Below, piece after piece: positions 6,485 to 23,528 of a stretch of 64,000 nt of DNA. Both the position numbers and the translations under genes were made by a program. The notes under the pieces are model-generated. The model did not search any database and was not told where the DNA came from. It saw nothing but the letters and a program-made list of their open reading frames with translations. Position 1 is the first letter of the stretch, and every line of letters begins with the position of its first letter. Source of the stretch: Acidobacteriota bacterium (GTDB lineage: Bacteria; Acidobacteriota; UBA6911); assembly GCA_963664705.1 (NCBI GenBank), contig OY761556.1, forward strand, positions 4,928,001 through 4,992,000. Reading direction: 5' to 3'.

Positions 6485-6800
6485 TCGCCTCGTTGCCGGC
6501 TCCTCGCGGGAGGTCTAGCAGGATGGTGGATTCCTCTGCAGAGTATTTCCCGGACGGATACGCAATGATGCGATCTGTTTGGTCATCAGCACTTGCACGC
6601 CGTGCAACCAATGCCGGGTTCAGGTTTTTCGTACGTAAATCACCATTTTTTCCTCGGGGGCGGAGTTTAACACAAGGTATTCGATCGCGCAATTTTTGCA
6701 TTCCTGCCCGATGAAGGAGCGCAATACCGGTGCGAACTGCAAAAATATTGAGATATAGGCACTAAAGGGTAAAAAGCCGTTAATGAAAAATATGCAAAAA

Positions 6801-6808
6801 TCCGATAA
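6801..6808 (+). promoter_or_regulatory. Possible sigma28 (FliA) -10 element upstream of cheW
   Basis: TCCGATAA versus GCCGATAA consensus; -35 weak; a similar CCCGATAA lies upstream of the CZB gene. Confidence 0.35.
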
Positions 6809-6882: not shown

Positions 6883-6963
6883 TGTCTTAACGGGCAGAAT
6901 TTTGGTTTGCAAGTTGAAGGCGCAGCGGGCATACGCGGTTCCAATGCCTGCTGCGCCTTTTTT
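6883..6963 (+). ncRNA. Conserved cis-regulatory leader RNA (riboswitch candidate) with intrinsic terminator, copy 1
   Basis: TGTCTTAACGG-GCAGAATTTTGGTTTGC-AAGTTGAAGGCGCAG, then 16-bp terminator stem 6917-6932/6944-6959 plus U tract, 60 nt before cheW; second copy at 12253-12328. Confidence 0.75.
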
Positions 6964-7023: not shown

Positions 7024-7563
7024 ATGTCAACCATGTTGGTTCGGGATGAGCCCGCGATGTATCCGGCCCACTCCAAAACCGCAGCCAATGCTACCGATTT
7101 TGGGGGCAAGTTTCTGACTTTCTTTCTGGCAGAGGAGGAATATGGCATAGCAATCCTGAAGGTGCACGAAATTATCGGGATGATGGCTATCACAAGCGTG
7201 CCGCGAACTCCCGCCTTTACCCGTGGAGTCATCAACCTCAGAGGGAAAGTCATCCCGATTGTTGATCTTCGGCTGAAATTCGAAATGCCGGCGCAGGATC
7301 AAACATCGGAAACCTGCATCATTGTCGTTCATGTTCAAGGCATCGAGATCGGGATTGTCGTAGACAGGGTATCAGAGGTTTTGAATATAGCAGGAAGCGA
7401 TATTGAAGAAGCTCCATCGTTTGGAACGGATGTAAATACCGATTACATCCTGGGGATAGGAAAGTCGCAGGGCAAGGTCAAAATCCTGCTGGATATCGAC
7501 AGGGTCCTGTCGACCCGGGAAGTCCATGAGATTGCGTCCCCCGAAACGGCAAACATCAATTAA
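7024..7563 (+). CDS. cheW: Chemotaxis coupling protein CheW
   Basis: FLTFFLAEEEYGI, GVINLRGKVIPIVDLR, GIVVDRVSEV motifs. Confidence 0.95.
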   Translation: MSTMLVRDEPAMYPAHSKTAANATDFGGKFLTFFLAEEEYGIAILKVHEIIGMMAITSVPRTPAFTRGVINLRGKVIPIVDLRLKFEMPAQDQTSETCIIVVHVQGIEIGIVVDRVSEVLNIAGSDIEEAPSFGTDVNTDYILGIGKSQGKVKILLDIDRVLSTREVHEIASPETANIN

Positions 7564-7594: not shown

Positions 7595-9859
7595 ATGAAG
7601 TGGTTTTACAATATGAAGATTGCCTCAAAATTGACCTGTTTTGCGCTAATGATGGCTTTCATCGCAGCTGTAATCGGATACGTCGGGATCCGGCAATTGA
7701 AGACACTTCAAAACGCCGATGAGGGGATGTACCAAAACAATGTCATCCCGCTTGAAAAGGTTTCGGAGGTTTCCAAATCTCTCCAGAGATTACGAGTCAA
7801 TGTCAGGGATGCGCTGCTGAGCGAAACCCAAAAGGATAGAAACTACTATCTTGATAGAACGCGAGAGATACTCAAAACGCTCCCGCCGCTCCTAAAGGAA
7901 ATCGAAACCGGCGTAAAGACCCCGGAGGAAAAGGAAACTCTCGAGGCATTATCTGTCAGCCTTAAGCAATATACGACCGACTTTGAGCAATTTGCCACGA
8001 TGGTCAATGCGAACAAAAAGGGAGTGGCACTGGCATATATGCGCGGCCCCTTCCTGAAAACTGCAACCGCAGGGATCAATGCCATCGACAAGCTGGTGCA
8101 AGTCAACGCGGATTTGGCAAAATCCACGGCCGATCAGAATGGGGTTACGGCAACCCATGGCGAACGGCTTGTGCTGGTGATTCTTGGGGTGGGGATTGCC
8201 CTGGCGGTAGGACTCGGGCTATGGATATCGCGAATGATCGCAACACCCCTCAAGCAGGTGGCCGAGCGTGCGGAAAGGCTTCAAAGCATTTGCATCACCA
8301 ACCTGGGGAAAGCCAGTGAAGCTATGGCGCATGGAGAACTCAATGCCAAGATAGTCACCGGCACAGAACCGCTTCAATTGGACAGCAAAGATGAAGTGGG
8401 CGCCCTGGCTCAAAGTGTAAACGGGATCATTACCAAAACACAGGGAACCATCGCGGCCTTCGAGAAGGCAATGGCCAATCTGCGCAGCGTAACGGATGAA
8501 ATCAACGGAATGATCTCGAGCGCGCAGGCAGGCGATCTGGCGAATCGAGGGAAGGCCGAGCGGTTCGAAGGCGGCTATCGCGCTATGGTGTCAGGATTCA
8601 ATGCCACACTGGACGCCGTCGTCGGACCCCTGCAGATGGCCTCCACATACATTGATCGCATCAGCCGCGGCGACATCCCGCCCAAAATCACGGAAAATTA
8701 CAACGGTGATTTCAATAACATTAAAAACAGCCTGAACCTGTGCATCGATAGTTTGCATTCTTTGATTGAAGAAGATGGTGGCGCCGCGCTTCTCGCCGCC
8801 GCCAACAGAGACCTGACAGCCCGGGCCAAAAAGGAATATCAGGGTGCATTTGAAAAGATGAAGACAAACATCAATACCCTGATCCAAAACCTGGATGACG
8901 CTCTTGTCCAGGTTGCCCTTGCATCGGATCAGGTCACTTCAGCGGCCAGTGAGATCTCATCGGGCAGCCAGACTCTTTCTCAGGGAGCTTCCGAGCAGGC
9001 GAGTTCGCTGGAAGAAGTATCGAGCAGTTTGCAGGAAATGTCATCGATGACCAAACGCAATGCGGAAAACGCCAAGGAAGCCCGCAGCCTCTCGGAAGGA
9101 GCGCAGGCGATCGCCGATAGAGGCGTTGAAAGCATGAAACGGCTTTCCGAGGCCATCGCCAAAATCAAAGTCTCCTCGGATTCCACCGCGAAGATCGTCA
9201 AAACAATTGACGAGATTGCCTTCCAGACCAACCTGCTGGCCCTTAACGCAGCGGTAGAAGCGGCGCGCGCCGGGGATGCCGGAAAGGGCTTTGCCGTGGT
9301 TGCAGAAGAAGTGCGCAATCTTGCCATGCGCAGTGCCGAAGCGGCCAAGAATACCGCAAACATGATTGAGGAATCGGTCAAGAATGCCGAAGGCGGCGTT
9401 GCCATCAACCAGGAAGTGCTGAGGAACCTGACCGAAATCAATAGCCAGGTGAATCAGGTCGGTACGGTCATGGCTGAAATAGCCGCAGCCTCGGAGCAGC
9501 AGAGCCAGGGAGTTGAGCAGGTAAATACTGCGGTTGAGCAGATGAACACGGTAACACAGCAGGTTGCTGCGAATGCTGAGGAGTCGGCCAGTGCGGCGGA
9601 AGAACTGTCCGGACAAGCCGAGGAAATGAAAAGCATGGTGGGAACCTTCCAGTTGTCGAGCACGCTGGCCAATAGTTCCCGGCCGACAAACCGGGCACGC
9701 AGGCAGCCCGCCTTCACGCCAGTTCCCAGGGCGGGAAAGATTCTGGCAAAACCGGTTGCCGCAGCGCGTGCCAACGGCGGGCTTCACGGCAAGCCTCTCG
9801 ATCCTTCAAAGCTGATCCCATTTGACAATGATGACCAGTCCATCTTGAAGGACTTCTAA
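7595..9859 (+). CDS. Methyl-accepting chemotaxis protein (4HB sensor, multiple HAMP, C-terminal pentapeptide ILKDF)
   Basis: Two TM helices; [37 protein letters not shown] signalling hairpin. Confidence 0.97.
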
Positions 9860-10672: not shown

Positions 10673-11626
10673 TTGGAGCGGATTGTGCCTGAAAGAGCCC
10701 GTTTATCGATCTGGAAGAGGACGTCTCCAACACGCAGAGTGATATTGCTATCCATCAGCGCCTCAATTGTAACGATGGCTCTCAAGATTGGAGCTTACGC
10801 GTTCACCGGCTCCGTCAGTTTGCTTTCGGATGCCATGGAATCCAGCGTCAACCTGATCGCGGCTTTAGTAGCCTTCATTGCTTTGACGATTGCTGACCGC
10901 CCGGCCGATCCATCGCATGCTTACGGCCACGATAAAGCGGAGTACTTTTCCAGCGGCGTGGAAGGGGCATTAATCCTGGTTGCGGCGATGCTCATCATCT
11001 ATACTGCGACCCAGAGATTCCTCCATCCAACGCCGCTCACGGATCTGGGCATGGGGTTAGCCATTGCGCTCATTGCGTCCGGCGTAAATTTCGGCGTTTC
11101 CCGATTTATGCTGCGGATGGCCAAACGCTACGACAGTATCTCGTTGGAAGCCGATGCCCAACATTTGATGACGGATGTCTGGACCTCGGTGGGAGTGGTG
11201 GCCGCTCTTGGAGTCGTGTCTTTCACGCCTCCTCAATGGGCTATCCTGGACCCCATTATTGCGGTCATCGTGGGACTGAACATAATTTACACGGGAGTGA
11301 ATCTGATCCGGCGCTCTTTCTCGGGCCTAATGGATAGCAGCCTCGCTGAGGATGAAATCGGACAGGTCAAAGCCGCAATTCATGGAGCCATTGATACGGG
11401 GATATCATTCCACAATCTTCGAACGCGAAAATCCGGATCCAGGCGGTTTGTAGAACTCCACGTTACAGTTCCTGGAAATCTCACAGTTACCGAAGGCCAT
11501 AATTATTGCGAGCGCATTGAGCAGGAAGTTGCAAACCGCCTTCCCAAAACATCCGTTTCCACCCACCTGGAACCGGAGGGAGCCATTGACAGATCTGCGG
11601 AGAAGGCTTCCGTCGTTGGACATTAA
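10673..11626 (+). CDS. Cation diffusion facilitator (FieF-like) transporter
   Basis: SVSLLSDAMES, PADxxHxYGHDKAEY, ADAQHLMTD, HLEP motifs; start approximate. Confidence 0.93.
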   Translation: MERIVPERARLSIWKRTSPTRRVILLSISASIVTMALKIGAYAFTGSVSLLSDAMESSVNLIAALVAFIALTIADRPADPSHAYGHDKAEYFSSGVEGALILVAAMLIIYTATQRFLHPTPLTDLGMGLAIALIASGVNFGVSRFMLRMAKRYDSISLEADAQHLMTDVWTSVGVVAALGVVSFTPPQWAILDPIIAVIVGLNIIYTGVNLIRRSFSGLMDSSLAEDEIGQVKAAIHGAIDTGISFHNLRTRKSGSRRFVELHVTVPGNLTVTEGHNYCERIEQEVANRLPKTSVSTHLEPEGAIDRSAEKASVVGH

Positions 11627-11696: not shown

Positions 11697-12059
11697 TTAA
11701 CAACTGGATTTCAATTTGGTCAGTTTGCCAATTAGCTCCGTTGAGCATTTGCGGATTTTTGAGCTGTTTTCGACCAGAGCCAGTGCCTCATTCTTCTTGC
11801 CTTTGAGCGCCAGTTCCAAAATGTGTGCTGCTTCTTTATGGAATTCGGCATGAAGGGTTTTGATTTCCGAATACAGGGGAGTGCCTTTTACCTGTGGGGG
11901 AAAGTCGCCATAAAGCCACTTGCCAAAATCACAATTATTATCGGGTCTTACATTCTCGGGACTGAATTGACTGGTCCCTTCATTGATGGCTACACGCAAT
12001 CTGATAAACCAATTGGTATGTGCCGAGATTGCATTGTCAATCTTCTCCGTATTGGACAC
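11697..12059 (-). CDS. Stand-alone CZB (chemoreceptor zinc-binding) domain protein
   Basis: GAGGAG RBS before GTG 12059; AHxxW, CDFGKWLY, HAEFH zinc ligands. Confidence 0.9.
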   Translation of the reverse strand: MSNTEKIDNAISAHTNWFIRLRVAINEGTSQFSPENVRPDNNCDFGKWLYGDFPPQVKGTPLYSEIKTLHAEFHKEAAHILELALKGKKNEALALVENSSKIRKCSTELIGKLTKLKSSC

Positions 12060-12252: not shown

Positions 12253-12328
12253 AAAAAAAGGCGCGGTCACGCCTGATATGCGTGACTGCGCCTTCAACTT
12301 GCAGGCCCTTTGCCTGCCCGCTAAGACA
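12253..12328 (-). ncRNA. Conserved cis-regulatory leader RNA (riboswitch candidate) with intrinsic terminator, copy 2
   Basis: Minus strand TGTCTTAGCGG-GCAGGCAAAGGGCCTGC-AAGTTGAAGGCGCAGTCACGC-ATATCAG-GCGTGACCGCGCCTTTTTTT upstream of the CZB gene. Confidence 0.75.
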
Positions 12329-12355: not shown

Positions 12356-12363
12356 TTATCGGG
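12356..12363 (-). promoter_or_regulatory. Possible sigma28 -10 element upstream of the CZB leader
   Basis: CCCGATAA on minus strand 27 nt before leader copy 2. Confidence 0.35.
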
Positions 12364-12394: not shown

Positions 12395-15202
12395 TCATTT
12401 TCTTTCTGGTTGCAGCCTCGCCGATCGCTCCTTCCATAAGACCAAAAGTGAGCCTGCCACAAATACCGAAGAATATGTGCCGACAACGATACCGGTCAGC
12501 AGGGCAAAGGCAATTCCGTTGAGGACCTCGCCTCCGAGAAAATAGAGAGCCAGGCACGCCAGCAATGTCGGTCCGGCGGTAAGCAGGGTTCGGCTCAACG
12601 TTTGATTGACCGAATCATTCACCAGTTTCAGGAACGAACCTGAGAATCGTCCGGATTGAAGGTTTTCGCGCACACGATCGAACACCACAATCGTGTCATT
12701 CGTCGAATATCCGATAAGCGTCAGCAATGCCGCTACAATGCTCAGGTCAACCTCGCGGCCGGTAAAAGCAAACAGCCCCAGCGTGATAATCACATCATGA
12801 ATCGTGGCCAGGATGGCTGCGACGCCCGAAAGCCATTTGAAGCGAAATGCAATGTAGAGCAGCATGCCTCCCAGGGCTCCCAGGGTCGCCATGGCGGCTC
12901 GCGTTTTCATCTGCTCGCTGGCGCGCGGGCTGACTGCTTCCGCCGAAAGGACGCGGAACTGGCCCGTTCCGCATTCATTTTTGAGAACCCCTAAAAGGTC
13001 AGGACTGATCTGCACAACCGAGGCCAGCGAATCGATTGAGTTGAGATATCCCCCGCTCTGCCTCTCCCTGAAATCCACTATGCTCGTTGCCAGCTCTCGA
13101 ATTTGAGCATCATTTAACGCAATTCCATGAGCAGGGAATGCCTTTTTGAGATGCTCGAAGAGTTCTGAGGGACTGGCCAGATTCAGATCCAGCTTGCCGT
13201 CGCCCTCACCATAGTGCTCGCTGAGAACCTGCTTTATTCGTTCACGCGCGGCAGACAAACCATCCCCTCCGGACAACTCTGTACTGATAATGAATTGAGA
13301 GAAGCCATGTTCTCGATGAGCAGCGCTCAGTTTTCCGGCTTCCTGCACAGACACTTCGCCTTTCAGCTTTGTGGAAAGGGCTTTCCGCACATCTTCGATC
13401 TGCTGCGCTCCTGCAATTTCGACTTTGACGACGGTTCCTCCGCGGAAATCAATGCCCGGTTTCAGGCCGATTCCAACGAGGCCGAGCAGGCTTGCCAGGA
13501 TGGCCGCAACGGAGATTCCAATGGCAAGATATCGCCATTTCATGAAATCGATGGATCTATTGAACAAATGGGTCGTTGGCAATCCGATGCTCAAATGCTT
13601 CGCATTGGGCCGGCGCCATGTCTGAATTTCAAAAATGGCGCGCGAAACAAAAACTGCAGTAAACAGGTTTGCGATCAATCCCAGCACAAGCGTCACGGCA
13701 AAACCTTTGACCGGCCCGGTTCCAAAAACGAACAGGAATGCGCTGGCGGCTACTGTTGTGACATGGGTGTCAATAATGGTGAGCAAAGCTCGTTTGAATC
13801 CGCTGGAAACAGCGCTGGCAACCAGTCGCCCGGATCGCAATTCTTCCTTGATACGCTCGAAAATGAGAACATTGGAATCCACGGCCATTCCGATCGACAA
13901 AACCAATCCGGCAAGGCCTGGCAGCGTCCATGTCCAATTCAGCCAGCTGAGAGCGGCAATTGTCAGGATTGCGTTCAAAACCAATGCGGCGACTGCATTC
14001 AAACCGGCCCCCCGGTAATAGCCAATCATGGAAGCGATCACGAGCATTAGTCCTACCGCGGCGGCGACAAGTCCGCGATGAATTGAATCGGACCCCAGAG
14101 AAGGCCCGACCGTGCTCTCCGCCATTGTCTTGATCCCGGCAGGAAGAGACCCCGCCTTGAGATTCAGTGCCAGATCAGCGGCATCCTGAAACGACCTGGC
14201 GCCGGTGATCCTGCCTTGATCGGATATGGCGGCATCGATACGCGGGACACTTAGAACCGCATTGTCGAGAACAATCGCGAGATGGTTCCCGATATTGGAT
14301 CGAGTGAATTTCTCAAAGCGTTCGGCCGCGGCCGGTTGCAGCATAAAGCCGGTATCCCAGCGTCCCGGGAGTTCGCCCGCTTCTGCGCGTGCATCTCTCA
14401 GGTCGATTCCCGCGATAACGGGCGAGCTGGAAATTAGCCACCAGGTCTTTCCATTGTCAGAAGGAGAGAGCCCGGGAACCATCCTGGCGCCTGCCGGTAA
14501 CGAACCGTTATGCGAACTGATTGCCTCCTCCTGGGAAGCATAGGGCCCACCGATCAGGGGAGACAATTCAAGCTGTGCCTGCGTGCGAATGATCTCCTTC
14601 ACCCGCGCGGGATCATCGACTCCCGGCAGCTGCACCAGGATTTCGGCACTGTCACGGCCTCCGCGCTGTTGCACGACAGTTTCAGCTAAGCCCAGGCTGT
14701 CGATCTTCCTCTGAATCGTGTGCATGCATTGCGTTACCGTATCCTGGCGCAGCCTTCGCGCCCTCTCTTGTCGGATTCCGAGGCGCAGGTCTCCTCCCTC
14801 CTCACCCATCAATTTCCATATCTGTCCCAGCGTCTCTTCCGCAATCCGGCGCATTTCGGTCGCCCGATTGGCCGGGATTCTCCGGACAATGATTTGTATT
14901 TGCTCGGCACTTTCTGCGGAATCTGGATCGCTTCTCTCAAGGATTGTGTCTTGAATCCCGGCCTTCCCCAATGCTTCACGAAGTCGTTCCAACCCCCGGT
15001 CTGCCTCGCTTTTGAAAGCATCCTGTACCTGGATCTGCATCTCCAGATAGGTGCCTCCCTTTAGATCCAAGCCCAGTCGGATACTCTTGTTCCAGTTTTC
15101 TCTCAACTCCTGTTGAGATTTGGGAAACTGGACGAGGCCTGCGATGCAGGCAAAAAGTACAAACGCTATCAAAACCCATTTCCACCGTAATCTGCTCGGC
15201 AT
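12395..15202 (-). CDS. secDF: Fused protein translocase subunit SecDF
   Basis: AGGAG RBS before ATG 15202; LGLDLKGG, VGPSLG, GMAVDSNVLIFERI (SecD) and GIDFRGG, GYSTNDTIVVFDRVRE (SecF). Confidence 0.96.
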   Translation of the reverse strand: MPSRLRWKWVLIAFVLFACIAGLVQFPKSQQELRENWNKSIRLGLDLKGGTYLEMQIQVQDAFKSEADRGLERLREALGKAGIQDTILERSDPDSAESAEQIQIIVRRIPANRATEMRRIAEETLGQIWKLMGEEGGDLRLGIRQERARRLRQDTVTQCMHTIQRKIDSLGLAETVVQQRGGRDSAEILVQLPGVDDPARVKEIIRTQAQLELSPLIGGPYASQEEAISSHNGSLPAGARMVPGLSPSDNGKTWWLISSSPVIAGIDLRDARAEAGELPGRWDTGFMLQPAAAERFEKFTRSNIGNHLAIVLDNAVLSVPRIDAAISDQGRITGARSFQDAADLALNLKAGSLPAGIKTMAESTVGPSLGSDSIHRGLVAAAVGLMLVIASMIGYYRGAGLNAVAALVLNAILTIAALSWLNWTWTLPGLAGLVLSIGMAVDSNVLIFERIKEELRSGRLVASAVSSGFKRALLTIIDTHVTTVAASAFLFVFGTGPVKGFAVTLVLGLIANLFTAVFVSRAIFEIQTWRRPNAKHLSIGLPTTHLFNRSIDFMKWRYLAIGISVAAILASLLGLVGIGLKPGIDFRGGTVVKVEIAGAQQIEDVRKALSTKLKGEVSVQEAGKLSAAHREHGFSQFIISTELSGGDGLSAARERIKQVLSEHYGEGDGKLDLNLASPSELFEHLKKAFPAHGIALNDAQIRELATSIVDFRERQSGGYLNSIDSLASVVQISPDLLGVLKNECGTGQFRVLSAEAVSPRASEQMKTRAAMATLGALGGMLLYIAFRFKWLSGVAAILATIHDVIITLGLFAFTGREVDLSIVAALLTLIGYSTNDTIVVFDRVRENLQSGRFSGSFLKLVNDSVNQTLSRTLLTAGPTLLACLALYFLGGEVLNGIAFALLTGIVVGTYSSVFVAGSLLVLWKERSARLQPERK

Positions 15203-15370
15203 AGTATTTCTCCTGAAGGTACCCGATGCCGGCGAAAGAACTATCGCGGGCATGGATACATGCTCCGGCGGCAGGAGACACCTACCAGCACAGCATTGTC
15301 TGCAAGGCCGGTGCAGGCGTACTCCCGACGCAGATATTAAAAAAAAATCGAAATTGTTGGGGTAAACAAA

Positions 15371-19273: not shown

Positions 19274-20245
19274 ATGAAAGCACCAAAAAATGGGAATCGG
19301 GAAGATATGCTAGCGCTACTGCGCATGATGATCCGGATCCGTACTTTTGAGGAGACAGCGGCCCGGCTCTTTCTGGATGGCAAGCTGATCGGCTTTCTCC
19401 ATCTGTACAGCGGGGAGGAAGCGATCGCCACCGGAGTCTGTGCCTGCCTGCGGGAGGACGATTGCATCACCAGCACTCACCGTGGGCATGGTCACTGCAT
19501 TGCCAAGGGCGCGGATGTCAATCGAATGATGGCGGAGCTGCATGGCAGGGTGACAGGATATTGCAAGGGCAAGGGTGGCTCCATGCACATTGCCGACATC
19601 TCAAAAGGAATTATCGGCGCCAACGGAATTGTGGGAGCAGGCATCCCCATTGCCGTGGGCACGGCCTATGCTCAGAAATATAGAAACCAGAATGCCGTTT
19701 CTGTCGCTTTTTTTGGCGATGGAGCCACAAACCGCGGGACCTTCCATGAGTCGCTGAATATGGCTGCAGCGTTGAATTTGCCGGTTGTCTTCGTGTGTGA
19801 GAACAACCAGTTCGGCATGTCCACACCCTTTGCCTATCATTCCAAGAACAAAACCATTTCGCAGCGCGCTGCCGCCTATGACATGCCGGGAGTACAGGTG
19901 GATGGCAACGACCCGGTAGCAGTGCGCGAAGCCGCAGCTCCTGCGGTTGCCCGGGCCCGCGAAGGCGGGGGCCCAACCCTGATCGAGTGCCTGACCTGGC
20001 GACATTACGGACACTTTGTGGGCGATTCAGCTCCGTACAAAAAACCAGAGGATGAAAAGGAATGGCGTGCCAAAGACCCGATTCCCATTTTTGAGAAGCG
20101 CCTGTTGGAAAATTGCATTGCGGACGCTTCTGAAATCAAAAGGATTTGGGCTGAAGCCGAAGAGGAAATTCGAGCGGCGGTGAAATTTGCCGAAGAGAGT
20201 CCCTTTCCCAAGGTTGAAGTAATGTACGAAGACCTGGTCTTTTGA
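19274..20245 (+). CDS. TPP-dependent 2-oxoacid/acetoin dehydrogenase E1 alpha subunit
   Basis: GFLHLYSGEEA, STHRGHGH, GKGGSMH, GDGA...CENN TPP motif. Confidence 0.95.
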   Translation: MKAPKNGNREDMLALLRMMIRIRTFEETAARLFLDGKLIGFLHLYSGEEAIATGVCACLREDDCITSTHRGHGHCIAKGADVNRMMAELHGRVTGYCKGKGGSMHIADISKGIIGANGIVGAGIPIAVGTAYAQKYRNQNAVSVAFFGDGATNRGTFHESLNMAAALNLPVVFVCENNQFGMSTPFAYHSKNKTISQRAAAYDMPGVQVDGNDPVAVREAAAPAVARAREGGGPTLIECLTWRHYGHFVGDSAPYKKPEDEKEWRAKDPIPIFEKRLLENCIADASEIKRIWAEAEEEIRAAVKFAEESPFPKVEVMYEDLVF

Positions 20246-20273
20246 TCCGCTGAACACAGGAAGGAGCTACATA

Positions 20274-21248
20274 GTGGCAAGGATACTGACCTATACACAA
20301 GCCATTCGGGAGGCGCAGGACATTGAAATGGCTCGCGATCCCAACGTCTTTATCTGTGGCGAAGATGTAGGCGCTTTTGGCAGCGCCTTCGGACAGACGG
20401 CGGGTCTGCAGAAAAAGTACGGTCCCATGCGGGTACTGGATACGCCCCTGAGCGAGACGGCGATCACCAGCCTTGGTGTCGGCGCTGCCGCCGTGGGCCT
20501 GCGCCCTATCGTAGTCCACGATTTCATGGACTTCATGGGCGTCTGCATGGACGAAATCCTCAACCAGGTTTCCAAACTGGCCTGGATGGTTGCGGGCCAG
20601 ACAAAGCTGTCCATGGTCATACGAGCTCAGGCGGGCGCCGGCATCAACGCCGCGGCTCAACACTCGCAAAGTCTCGAATCATTTTTCACGCACATGCCGG
20701 GCATCAAAGTCGTCGCTTCATCCAATCCTGCGGATATGAAGGGCCTTTTGGAATCAGCCATACGGGACGATAACCCCGTCCTCGTCATTGAAAACAAGAC
20801 CCTCCTGGGTATGGAGGGGGATGTCCCAGAAGGGGAATATCTTGTTCCCATCGGCAAAGCCAATGTGGCTCGCGAAGGCACGGATGTGACCATCGTGTCG
20901 TACGGCATGATGGTGAATAAATGCCTGAGCGCTGCGAAGACGCTGGCTTCCGAAGGCCTTAATGTGGAGGTCATCGATATCCGTAGTCTTATCCCTTTGG
21001 ATAAGGAAACCATTTTCCGCTCTCTGGCCAAGACCAATCGACTTGTAATCGTGCACGAGGCGATCGGCTGCACGGGCTATGGGGCCGAGATTTCCGCGAT
21101 TGTGGCCGAGGAGGCGCTTGATTATCTGGACGCCCCTATCGTGCGCGTCGCCGCGCCTTTTACCCATTGTCCGTTCTCTCCTACGCTGGAACAGGAATTC
21201 GTGCCGAACGAGGCGAAAATCATTCGTGCAGTCAAATCGTTGCTTTAG
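20274..21248 (+). CDS. 2-oxoacid/acetoin dehydrogenase E1 beta subunit
   Basis: GEDVG, DTPLSE, AAAQHSQS, IRDDNPV, EVIDIRSL motifs. Confidence 0.95.
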   Translation: MARILTYTQAIREAQDIEMARDPNVFICGEDVGAFGSAFGQTAGLQKKYGPMRVLDTPLSETAITSLGVGAAAVGLRPIVVHDFMDFMGVCMDEILNQVSKLAWMVAGQTKLSMVIRAQAGAGINAAAQHSQSLESFFTHMPGIKVVASSNPADMKGLLESAIRDDNPVLVIENKTLLGMEGDVPEGEYLVPIGKANVAREGTDVTIVSYGMMVNKCLSAAKTLASEGLNVEVIDIRSLIPLDKETIFRSLAKTNRLVIVHEAIGCTGYGAEISAIVAEEALDYLDAPIVRVAAPFTHCPFSPTLEQEFVPNEAKIIRAVKSLL

Positions 21249-21292
21249 GTCTCAGACCGGCAGATGCAGAAAAGGATAAGGTAGGGATTGAT

Positions 21293-22504
21293 ATGGCTGT
21301 CGAAATATTAATGCCCAAACTCGGGTTAACCATGAAAACCGGTACCGTTCTCAAATGGTTGAAGGAGGAGGGCGATGAAGTTGCTGCGACCGAGCCCGTG
21401 CTCGAAATCGAAACGGAGAAACTCAGCCATCAGATTGAGAGTCCGGCGGACGGCGTCCTTTTAAAGAGAATCGCCATTGAAGGGGAGCGCTATCCCGTTG
21501 CCTTCGTCGTGGGCTATATCGGCCAGCCCGGTGAGCAGATCGCAGCCGGGGTTGCGGCGGATATTTCTATCGGAGCTGCGTCGCCAAATAGGGAAACCGC
21601 GCCGTTGCGTACCCAGGTCCCTAATGCCTCGCAAGGTGGGCGTGTCTTTATTTCTCCTGTGGCCAGAAAGCTGGCCGCTGATCTAGGTCTTGATTACCGA
21701 CAGATCCCGGGTACGGGCCCCAACGGACGCATCGTTAAGGCAGATGTTCAAAAATACGCGGACGCGCAGCAGGCGGCGCGCGCACCGATCGCTCACCCGG
21801 AGCCGGATGAGGCCGATACCGTGATCCCATGCAGCGGGATGCGATGTACCATCGGAACCAATATGCTCCAAGCCTGGACGACCATACCCATGGTCACGCA
21901 TCACGTTATGGCAGATGCAACTGCGCTGCTGGGCTATCGCGAGATGCTCAACCGCGGCGTTACGGATAAAGGTGACCAGGTATCTATCAACGATCTTCTC
22001 CTGAAGTTAACCGCAGTGGCACTGGAGAAAATACCCATCGTCAATTCCTCACTTGCGGGGAACAACATTGTCCTGCACAAGCGTGTACATCTTGGCATGG
22101 CCACGGCTTTGGATAATGGCTTGATCGTCCCGGTCATTCGGGATGCCAACCGGAAAAACCTGCTGGCGCTCAGCCGGGAGGCAAAAGATCTGGCTGCCCG
22201 GGCCAGGAAAGGGAGCCTTGGTCTGGATGAAATTCAGGGCGCGACCTTCACCGTTTCCAATCTGGGCGGCTACGGGTCGGTCGATCTCTTTACTCCTATT
22301 ATCAACCCGCCGCAGGCCGGCATCCTCGGGATCGGTCGCATAATCGAAACCGCCGTGCCCGTGGAGGGGGAAGTTCGGATCCGGCCTCAAATCGGGCTTT
22401 CCTTCACCTACGATCACCGGATCATGGACGGCGCCGTTGCCGCTGAATTTATTCGCAAACTGATGCAACTTCTGGAAAATCCGGCACGCTCCGTGCTTCT
22501 GTAG
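21293..22504 (+). CDS. Dihydrolipoamide acyltransferase E2
   Basis: Lipoyl domain MPKLG...ETEKL, E3-binding SPVARKLA...GTGPNGRI, catalytic DHRIMDG. Confidence 0.95.
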   Translation: MAVEILMPKLGLTMKTGTVLKWLKEEGDEVAATEPVLEIETEKLSHQIESPADGVLLKRIAIEGERYPVAFVVGYIGQPGEQIAAGVAADISIGAASPNRETAPLRTQVPNASQGGRVFISPVARKLAADLGLDYRQIPGTGPNGRIVKADVQKYADAQQAARAPIAHPEPDEADTVIPCSGMRCTIGTNMLQAWTTIPMVTHHVMADATALLGYREMLNRGVTDKGDQVSINDLLLKLTAVALEKIPIVNSSLAGNNIVLHKRVHLGMATALDNGLIVPVIRDANRKNLLALSREAKDLAARARKGSLGLDEIQGATFTVSNLGGYGSVDLFTPIINPPQAGILGIGRIIETAVPVEGEVRIRPQIGLSFTYDHRIMDGAVAAEFIRKLMQLLENPARSVLL

Positions 22505-22538
22505 ACCGGAAGCGCCGACACCAACTGCAGTAGAGGAC

Positions 22539-23528
22539 ATGCGATACATAGAAAGCCCCTCGACCGACCCGGCCTTCAACCTGGCGCTCGAGCAATATCT
22601 GTTTGATACCCTGTCCTGCAATGAAGAGTACTTCATGCTCTGGCAGAACAGGGATTCCGTCATCATTGGCCTGCACCAGAATACGGCAGAAGAGATAAAC
22701 CAGGCCTATATCACTCAACACCACATTCCCGTCATCCGGCGTCTGTCGGGCGGCGGTGCCGTATTTCACGATTTGGGCAATATCAATTACTCTTTTGTTA
22801 CCCCGGCTCCGGATATTGGCAAATTGGACTACAGGTTCTTTTGCCAACCCATTATCGAGGCTCTTGAGGACTTTGGCCTTCGCGCGGAAACCAGCGGTCG
22901 AAACGATATAACCATCGACGGCAAAAAGTTTTCCGGCAATGCCCGGTATCTGCGCGGCGGCCGCCTGATGCACCACGGCACGATCCTGTTTGACACCGAT
23001 TTGGAAAAAATGGCGGAGGCCCTGCGCGTGCCGGAGGACAAGATCTTTTCAAAAGGTATAAAGTCCGTTCGCGCTCGAGTAACCAACCTCCGAGGCTATT
23101 TGCCCCGCAATCTGACTGCGCTGGAATTTCTGGCATTTCTGCACACCAGCATAGCCGGAAAGAGGGACATGTCCGCCTATACCATGACCGGGCAGGATTG
23201 GGATGCCGTGGAAGCGCTGCGACTTCGACGCTATGTGAACTGGGAATGGAACTACGGTCAGTCGCCGGATTACCGTATCAAAAAGCGCCGGCGCCTGCCC
23301 GGCTTCGGAGATATCCGGGTCAGCATGCAGGTGGAAAACGGCAGAATTACAGCTTTCGCAACCGACGGAGATTATTTCGGCTCCAGGCCCTGCGCCGATA
23401 TAGCCGCCGCGTTGATCAACACCAGGCTGGAAGAGAAGGCTTTGCTGGAGGTATTGGCCACTGTTCCGCTGGAGGAATTCTACGAAGGGCTTTCCCGGAA
23501 TGAATTTATCCGCCTCCTTCTCGAATAA
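22539..23528 (+). CDS. lplA: Lipoate-protein ligase A
   Basis: FNLALEQY, RRLSGGGAVFHDLGN, GRND..KKFSGNA, HHGT, WEWNYG. Confidence 0.93.
   Translation: MRYIESPSTDPAFNLALEQYLFDTLSCNEEYFMLWQNRDSVIIGLHQNTAEEINQAYITQHHIPVIRRLSGGGAVFHDLGNINYSFVTPAPDIGKLDYRFFCQPIIEALEDFGLRAETSGRNDITIDGKKFSGNARYLRGGRLMHHGTILFDTDLEKMAEALRVPEDKIFSKGIKSVRARVTNLRGYLPRNLTALEFLAFLHTSIAGKRDMSAYTMTGQDWDAVEALRLRRYVNWEWNYGQSPDYRIKKRRRLPGFGDIRVSMQVENGRITAFATDGDYFGSRPCADIAAALINTRLEEKALLEVLATVPLEEFYEGLSRNEFIRLLLE

Follow-up and report, generated by a model that had tools for sequence, protein, structure and literature searches.

CAT, ANTAR and HutP are named as RNA-binding antiterminators, with ANTAR providing an RNA-binding output for two-component systems (PMC12591593). 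The ANTAR regulators EutV, AmiR and NasR consist of a receiver joined by a long helix to a small, helical output domain, and their target RNA, a pair of hexaloop hairpins, overlaps an intrinsic terminator and recurs in a multi-copy regulon (PMC3369931, PMC12591593). In the CAT/RAT systems of BglG, LicT and SacY, a single hairpin overlapping the 5' arm of the terminator is held by protein (PMC12591593). Short ON-switch leaders that work against a terminator are also found in the Na+-I (RF03071) and Li+-I (nhaA-I) riboswitches, which have conserved blocks of their own, a two-stem aptamer and ion-transport targets (PMC9337991, PMC9646797). In the Na+-I constructs presented in PMC9337991, P1 opens 5' with GGUUG(A/G) and ends in UUCAAGA, and it is a second hairpin, P2, with a GGGU-containing loop, that competes with the terminator.

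The leader described here lies at positions 6883–6963 of the window, the whole stretch of 64,000 nucleotides that was analysed, in the genome of an Acidobacteriota bacterium (G000). It has in common with Na+-I and Li+-I a short ON-switch leader set against a terminator, and the DUF1646 motif was, like the present one, reported or named from Acidobacteria; here, however, it is P1 that works against the terminator, and the conserved blocks, aptamer architecture and targets all differ. Its proposed partner, a response regulator, has the receiver, long helix and small helical output domain of the ANTAR proteins, and the RNA likewise overlaps an intrinsic terminator (82 of 103 members) and forms a multi-copy regulon. 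Unlike the ANTAR targets, which belong to nitrogen genes and consist of two hexaloop hairpins, this RNA is one long bulged hairpin with an internal loop, standing before chemotaxis and signalling genes. The single hairpin overlapping the 5' terminator arm recalls CAT/RAT, where RAT hairpins also have internal loops, but there is neither a CAT_RBD nor a PRD, the control domain, where there is one, is a receiver, the RNAs are unrelated in sequence and the target genes are not for sugar use. The system is best read as showing ANTAR-like logic with an unrelated protein and RNA. No description of the RNA or of the domain was found in the literature searched: the main text of PMC11109978 contains none of six keywords, and its supplements or subscription papers may describe the motif.

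Two leaders with competing hairpins

An earlier sequence-only reading had pointed to two leaders in the window, at 6883–6963 on the + strand and 12328–12253 on the − strand, and each indeed contains a hairpin and a terminator. The features are as follows.

6781–6808, + strand: predicted sigma-28-like promoter, TAAT-N16-TCCGATAA (from the sequence, the count of CCGATA boxes and the presence of a FliA gene)
6883–6924, + strand: antiterminator hairpin, copy 1, with a YCUU/AAGG stem, a bulged G and a 3-bp middle stem
6917–6963, + strand: intrinsic terminator, copy 1, whose 5' arm AAGGCGCA is the 3' arm of the hairpin
7024–7563, + strand: cheW (Pfam CheW)
7595–9859, + strand: methyl-accepting chemotaxis protein, 4HB-HAMP-MCPsignal (domain search)
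11697–12059, − strand: stand-alone CZB (chemoreceptor zinc-binding) domain gene (domain search)
12253–12294, − strand: intrinsic terminator, copy 2 (folding)
12287–12328, − strand: antiterminator hairpin, copy 2 (sequence, covariance model and folding)
12356–12363, − strand: predicted sigma-28-like −10 box CCCGATAA, copy 2 (sequence)

The copy 1 hairpin also has a GK/AA internal loop and a variable upper stem-loop. Folded alone, the hairpins reach −15.7 (copy 1) and −19.9 kcal/mol (copy 2), with z-scores of −3.8 and −2.9, and the terminators −30.0 and −24.7 kcal/mol (z −5.2 and −6.5). In computed folds of the whole leader the terminator comes out lowest in energy, at the expense of the hairpin. 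The antiterminator or ON-switch layout that had been proposed is supported, the 3' arm of the hairpin being the 5' arm of a terminator that is predicted to form by default. The companion proposal, that the 5' strand pairs with the terminator arm, needs one refinement: pairing in the lower stem is good only over YCUU/AAGG, the outer G-C pair being disrupted in 32 of the 100 homologues. A fuzzy version of the motif matched twice in the window and once overall in 675 Markov simulations; chance is excluded for the window pair, because none of the simulated windows had two matches.

The CZB gene is assigned a GTG start because of an AGAGGAG upstream of it. It is adjoined by a cation-efflux gene (10673–11626), and the window also holds a fused secDF (12395–15253) and a cluster for 2-oxoacid dehydrogenase E1/E2 with lipoate ligase (19274–23528), all three of them ordinary.

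Both window copies are real, yet they are not the only two, since pattern and covariance searches found eight in the genome, at 43–60 bits with the next match at 15 bits. Behind them lie four chemoreceptor genes, two cheW genes, one CZB gene and one gene for a multi-PAS protein. Boxes were assigned by the sigma-28 promoter consensus, and CCGATA occurs within 130 nt upstream of seven of the eight copies as against 4% of random windows, which puts the motif downstream of a promoter-like box. As FliA is also encoded in this genome, the motif probably resides in sigma-28 leaders.

Homologues and covariation of the RNA

Roughly 100 homologues were recovered, from metagenomes and from at least five phyla (Acidobacteriota, Nitrospirota, Nitrospinota, Latescibacterota and Armatimonadota). 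A pattern scan of GTDB gave 28 matches, sorted by eye into 20 due to chance and eight judged real, the latter from Holophagae, Nitrospirota, Nitrospinota and Latescibacterota. In metagenomes, 20 of 64 parts yielded at least 125 loci (about 390 estimated) with 106 distinct cores. A lower-stem filter kept 103 of the 121 distinct cores from metagenome and genome copies together and excluded 18; a terminator follows 82 of the 103 kept cores against three of the 18 excluded. L111, L135 and L177 were excluded by the filter, carry terminators and are probably real. The exact pattern of six copies was too tight and found nothing in 60 relatives, viral contigs searched for the motif gave no match, the sequencing runs listed included no holder of the RNA, and covariance hits of 20–27 bits in 18 other genomes of the host phylum were set aside as noise because most were without the core.

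The consensus reads NRYCUU-D-N-C-GK-GYAR-(stem-loop)-YUGC-AA-G-U-Y-G-AAGG-CRYAA and forms a hairpin of about 42 nt, with its conservation inflated because the search pattern fixed many columns. Among 100 aligned members, which are related to one another, 94.5% of pairing cells are paired and there are 64 double changes against 20.5 +/- 7.4 in shuffled alignments. The covariation claimed from the two window copies is supported; the three top pairs by corrected mutual information are predicted base pairs. Of the downstream ORFs, 78 were scanned and 44 had a Pfam match, 35 of these being signalling or chemotaxis proteins (receiver, kinase, PAS, MCP/HAMP, CheW, CZB, PilZ and LuxR proteins) and none an ion transporter.

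The Rfam search that had been recommended, with DUF1646 and c-di-GMP-I/II included, returned no gathering-score match for Rfam 15 in the window, and only sub-threshold chance matches for both leaders (E<=10) and 20 homologous loci (E<=5). No c-di-GMP-I was found in G000, and the control genomes likewise gave no match. Between a known class and a new motif, the two options initially left standing, it is the second that holds: the motif is a real, uncatalogued cis-regulatory RNA.

Some members depart from the common layout. Certain Holophagae and Armatimonadota copies are without a U-tailed terminator. In the Holophagae type represented by L012, L031, L220 and L105 a sigma-70-like promoter precedes the motif, and it is followed by a conserved CCUGGAG with no U-tract. 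At L286:1951–2002, L302 and L303, copies directly before fliM are devoid of a terminator and cover a GGAG close to the start codon, an arrangement suggestive of translational control; these loci have a second motif copy upstream of the regulator gene. At L121, L147 and L154 a downstream ACAACTTGCAG is complementary to the 3' arm of the motif, an alternative pairing that replaces the terminator. The ten bases preceding the motif at L163 resemble the 3' end of another copy, and two tandem copies may overlap there. Less usual neighbours downstream of motif copies are a receiver domain fused to a thioredoxin-like 2Fe-2S domain of the NuoE type (L068:2308–3150) and an IS200-like transposase gene (L078:2232–2900, and likewise L213).

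A response regulator with an unannotated domain

Clustering of ORFs over 129 motif loci brought out a response regulator of about 250 residues with an unannotated C-terminal domain, referred to here as FKSK after its signature, CxxxxC followed by LExTKxxFKSKxLxxLR. The domain is helical and basic, with net charge averaging +3.0 to +3.6 over a 22-residue FKSK window, and the receiver residues D23, D24, D67, T95 and K117 are conserved. The family comprises 1329 clusters at 50% identity. Pfam and NCBIfam searches with the regulator gave receiver-domain matches only, leaving FKSK without a convincing match; a PDB sequence search gave no match, and the ESM Atlas returned only unnamed clusters, at 0.75 and 0.88–0.89.

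In the AlphaFold2 model of the regulator (pLDDT 84) the receiver is followed by two long helices, the first of 45 residues, and by three short ones. The Foldseek matches of this model are driven by the receiver, with the EutV-RNA structure 6ww6 at rank 37 (TMq 0.50), and a model of the C-terminal domain (pTM 0.47) found only generic helical matches, mostly over residues 1–75.

In G000 the regulator is a single-copy gene (C1:665334–666122, minus strand) inside a contiguous same-strand che run with the motif copy at 681004 at its head. The run begins with cheW, mcp, a PAS kinase, cheA, a cheR-sized ORF, cheD and a cheY-like gene, and continues with cheX, cheB, HDOD, cheX, REC-REC, the regulator and PAS-HisKA. 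Where the gene upstream of a regulator was tested, it encoded a histidine kinase in all four cases, three of them with PAS.

Co-occurrence of RNA and regulator

The end of a REC+FKSK gene lies within 400 nt upstream of 19 of the 36 metagenome copies whose upstream DNA spans 1 kb or more, and of 26 of the 79 with 300 nt or more, counts made with a regulator profile built in part from these same metagenome loci. In a sample of 151 Nitrospirota genomes that includes the seed G103, the RNA is present in nine of 13 genomes with the protein and in none of 138 without it, and in all nine it stands directly behind the regulator gene. In the host phylum (151 genomes) the protein occurs only in G000 and G234, and RNA matches above 40 bits only in the same two; both protein copies of G234 have a motif after them. 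The phylum of G403 (Zipacnadia), which we take to be Armatimonadota, was sampled with 251 genomes, of which five have the protein; the RNA search covered these five and found it in four, three with the motif on both sides of the gene. In G616 the motif lies 2.1 kb downstream of the regulator gene. No positive result draws on G109 or G046, and G046 enters the tallies as a negative only. The Fisher P of 8e-12 for co-occurrence overstates the association, because kin are not independent.

Of 58 regulators placed on a tree, 40 have an adjacent motif, and these are scattered over most of the deep branches. The Nitrospirota clade of L275, L276, L278, L280, L282 and L283 has FRSK instead of FKSK and, in its RNA, CCUGUCAG or CCUGUUAG instead of CCUGCAAG; on the tree this counts as one event. 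In G297 (L284) the tail of the protein reads FPSK and the conserved R is lost, and the adjacent RNA is degenerate and without a terminator. This degenerate RNA lies about 270 nt past the regulator stop and keeps a promoter-like box.

The association is not complete. Within the host genus (29 genomes) the FKSK domain occurs in 10 and the main motif only in G012 and G024; REC+FKSK stands without a detected motif in five of the six same-genus carriers (G007, G011, G016, G025 and G026) and also in G303, G381 and G821, while G375 has one weak match. Conversely, the 2.7 Mb draft G107 has five RNA matches, three of them strong, and the regulator was not found, and in G012 (89% complete), which has the main motif, only a stand-alone FKSK domain was found. 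RNA distance correlates with receiver distance (rho 0.44) more than with FKSK-domain distance (0.26), and this argues for co-inheritance rather than a special co-evolution with the proposed binding domain.

The FKSK domain on its own

Six loci (L251–L255 and L299) encode the FKSK domain alone, in about 90 residues with no receiver domain, and F-K-S and R are invariant across the stand-alone and REC-fused forms. Where neighbours can be annotated, the stand-alone genes have feoB or dtxR-feoA ahead of them and porin or TonB-receptor genes behind. In five of the six, a variant hairpin (YCYU-AC-GG-stem-AA-GU-G-ARGG, with no match in G000) begins 16–24 nt past the stop codon and is overlapped by a terminator. 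As the stand-alone form carries the variant hairpin at these five loci, the RNA appears to track the FKSK domain rather than the receiver. That one RNA core recurs with one domain amid unrelated genes speaks most strongly for FKSK as the partner of the RNA. The stand-alone protein is a candidate metal-responsive antiterminator, and from the gene context we would guess that metal is sensed through its Cys/His residues.

Competing explanations

From co-occurrence with a single protein family, we favour a protein-bound antiterminator over a small-molecule aptamer. A new riboswitch for a small molecule or ion, such as a second messenger, with the regulator as passenger of a mobile signalling cassette, would fit the short, highly conserved bulge and internal loop, the ON-switch terminator and the signalling bias of the downstream genes. 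The regulons of c-di-GMP riboswitches have a similar set of signalling and chemotaxis targets, and the detection of RNA but no REC+FKSK gene in G107 and G012 would follow naturally. We nevertheless consider this unlikely, given that protein-negative genomes are without the RNA in Nitrospirota and without a strong match in the host phylum (0 of 149), that protein and RNA have decayed jointly in G297, that the stand-alone FKSK protein has the variant RNA in an unrelated iron-uptake context, and that seven of the eight G000 copies are distant from the regulator gene.

The FKSK protein might instead bind the RNA and promote termination, or mainly control translation. The Armatimonadota copies before fliM, with no terminator and with the motif extending over a GGAG some 12 nt from the ATG, and the Holophagae copies L012, L031 and L220 with no U-tract lean this way. 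In most copies, however, the hairpin competes with a terminator that is already the default fold, so that a hairpin binder can only favour read-through there, and this reading is very unlikely.

Most response regulators bind DNA, and the motif is quasi-palindromic, as a DNA operator recognized by the regulator could be. Against this, the pairs tolerate G-U swaps (27 U-G beside 73 C-G at one pair among 100 members), the motif keeps one strand orientation, lies past the promoter box and is fused to a terminator, and the regulator convincingly matched no helix-turn-helix family; we regard this reading as highly improbable.

A divergent ANTAR or CAT/RAT target is scarcely credible. One can draw a small alternative hairpin across the terminator arm, with AAGGCR as its loop (A1, G4), but its pairs do not covary and one of them is C-A in 27 of 102 members, whereas the covariation describes one long hairpin; dual hexaloop hairpins of the ANTAR kind are rejected on the same grounds. 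The ANTAR domain (PF03861) has no match in G000 and occurs in one of five other motif-bearing genomes (G366), and CAT_RBD (PF03123) has none in G000, while matching in four of 14 control genomes. ANTAR is also absent among the best 25 of 29 weak families matched by the partner protein, and hhalign of that protein against one ANTAR sequence gave a probability of 0.3%.

The Na+-I (DUF1646) riboswitch, which the leader had been said to resemble, can practically be dismissed: the pentamer GUUGA and the ON-switch layout are shared, but RF03071 (threshold 40.5 bits) matches no copy, its best score in the genome being 15.5 bits elsewhere, the order of conserved blocks differs, P2 and the GGUUG(A/G), UUCAAGA and GGGU-loop elements of the constructs in PMC9337991 are absent, and none of the 44 annotated downstream ORFs encodes an ion transporter.

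Proposed mechanism and significance

We think it likely that the leader, a hairpin overlapping a terminator, is the binding site of the REC+FKSK regulator and acts by protein-dependent antitermination, the binding itself being inferred from co-occurrence. A sigma-28-type promoter is predicted to start the leader transcript, in which, by computed folding, the terminator would form without the partner and leave expression off by default. Judging by gene order and the conserved receiver residues, phosphorylation of the receiver would come from a histidine kinase, often a PAS kinase whose gene lies just upstream. The basic C-terminal helices (FKSKxLxxLR) would then bind at the bulge and the internal loop, so that AAGG stays paired with YCUU; the regulator, probably once phosphorylated, would in this way hold the hairpin shut and allow read-through into cheW-mcp. 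With the regulator gene near the end of a motif-headed che run, positive feedback over eight dispersed targets may result.

More tentatively, and at somewhat less than an even chance, FKSK may be an antitermination module of a new RNA-binding kind, related to neither ANTAR nor CAT, that exists in two forms. In one, a two-component output would add a checkpoint after initiation to the sigma-28 chemotaxis regulon; in the other, a 90-residue Cys/His protein would sense iron or another metal and, by way of the variant hairpin, open porin and TonB-receptor genes.

Should the RNA prove to be a riboswitch instead, its class would still be uncatalogued, with about 100 members aligned. If protein-dependent antitermination is correct, an unnamed domain found in 1329 clusters at 50% identity would gain a function and a defined 42-nt target, and chemotaxis genes would be gated after initiation by a two-component system. 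The result would be a compact RNA switch, controlled by phosphorylation or by metal, that is easy to test.
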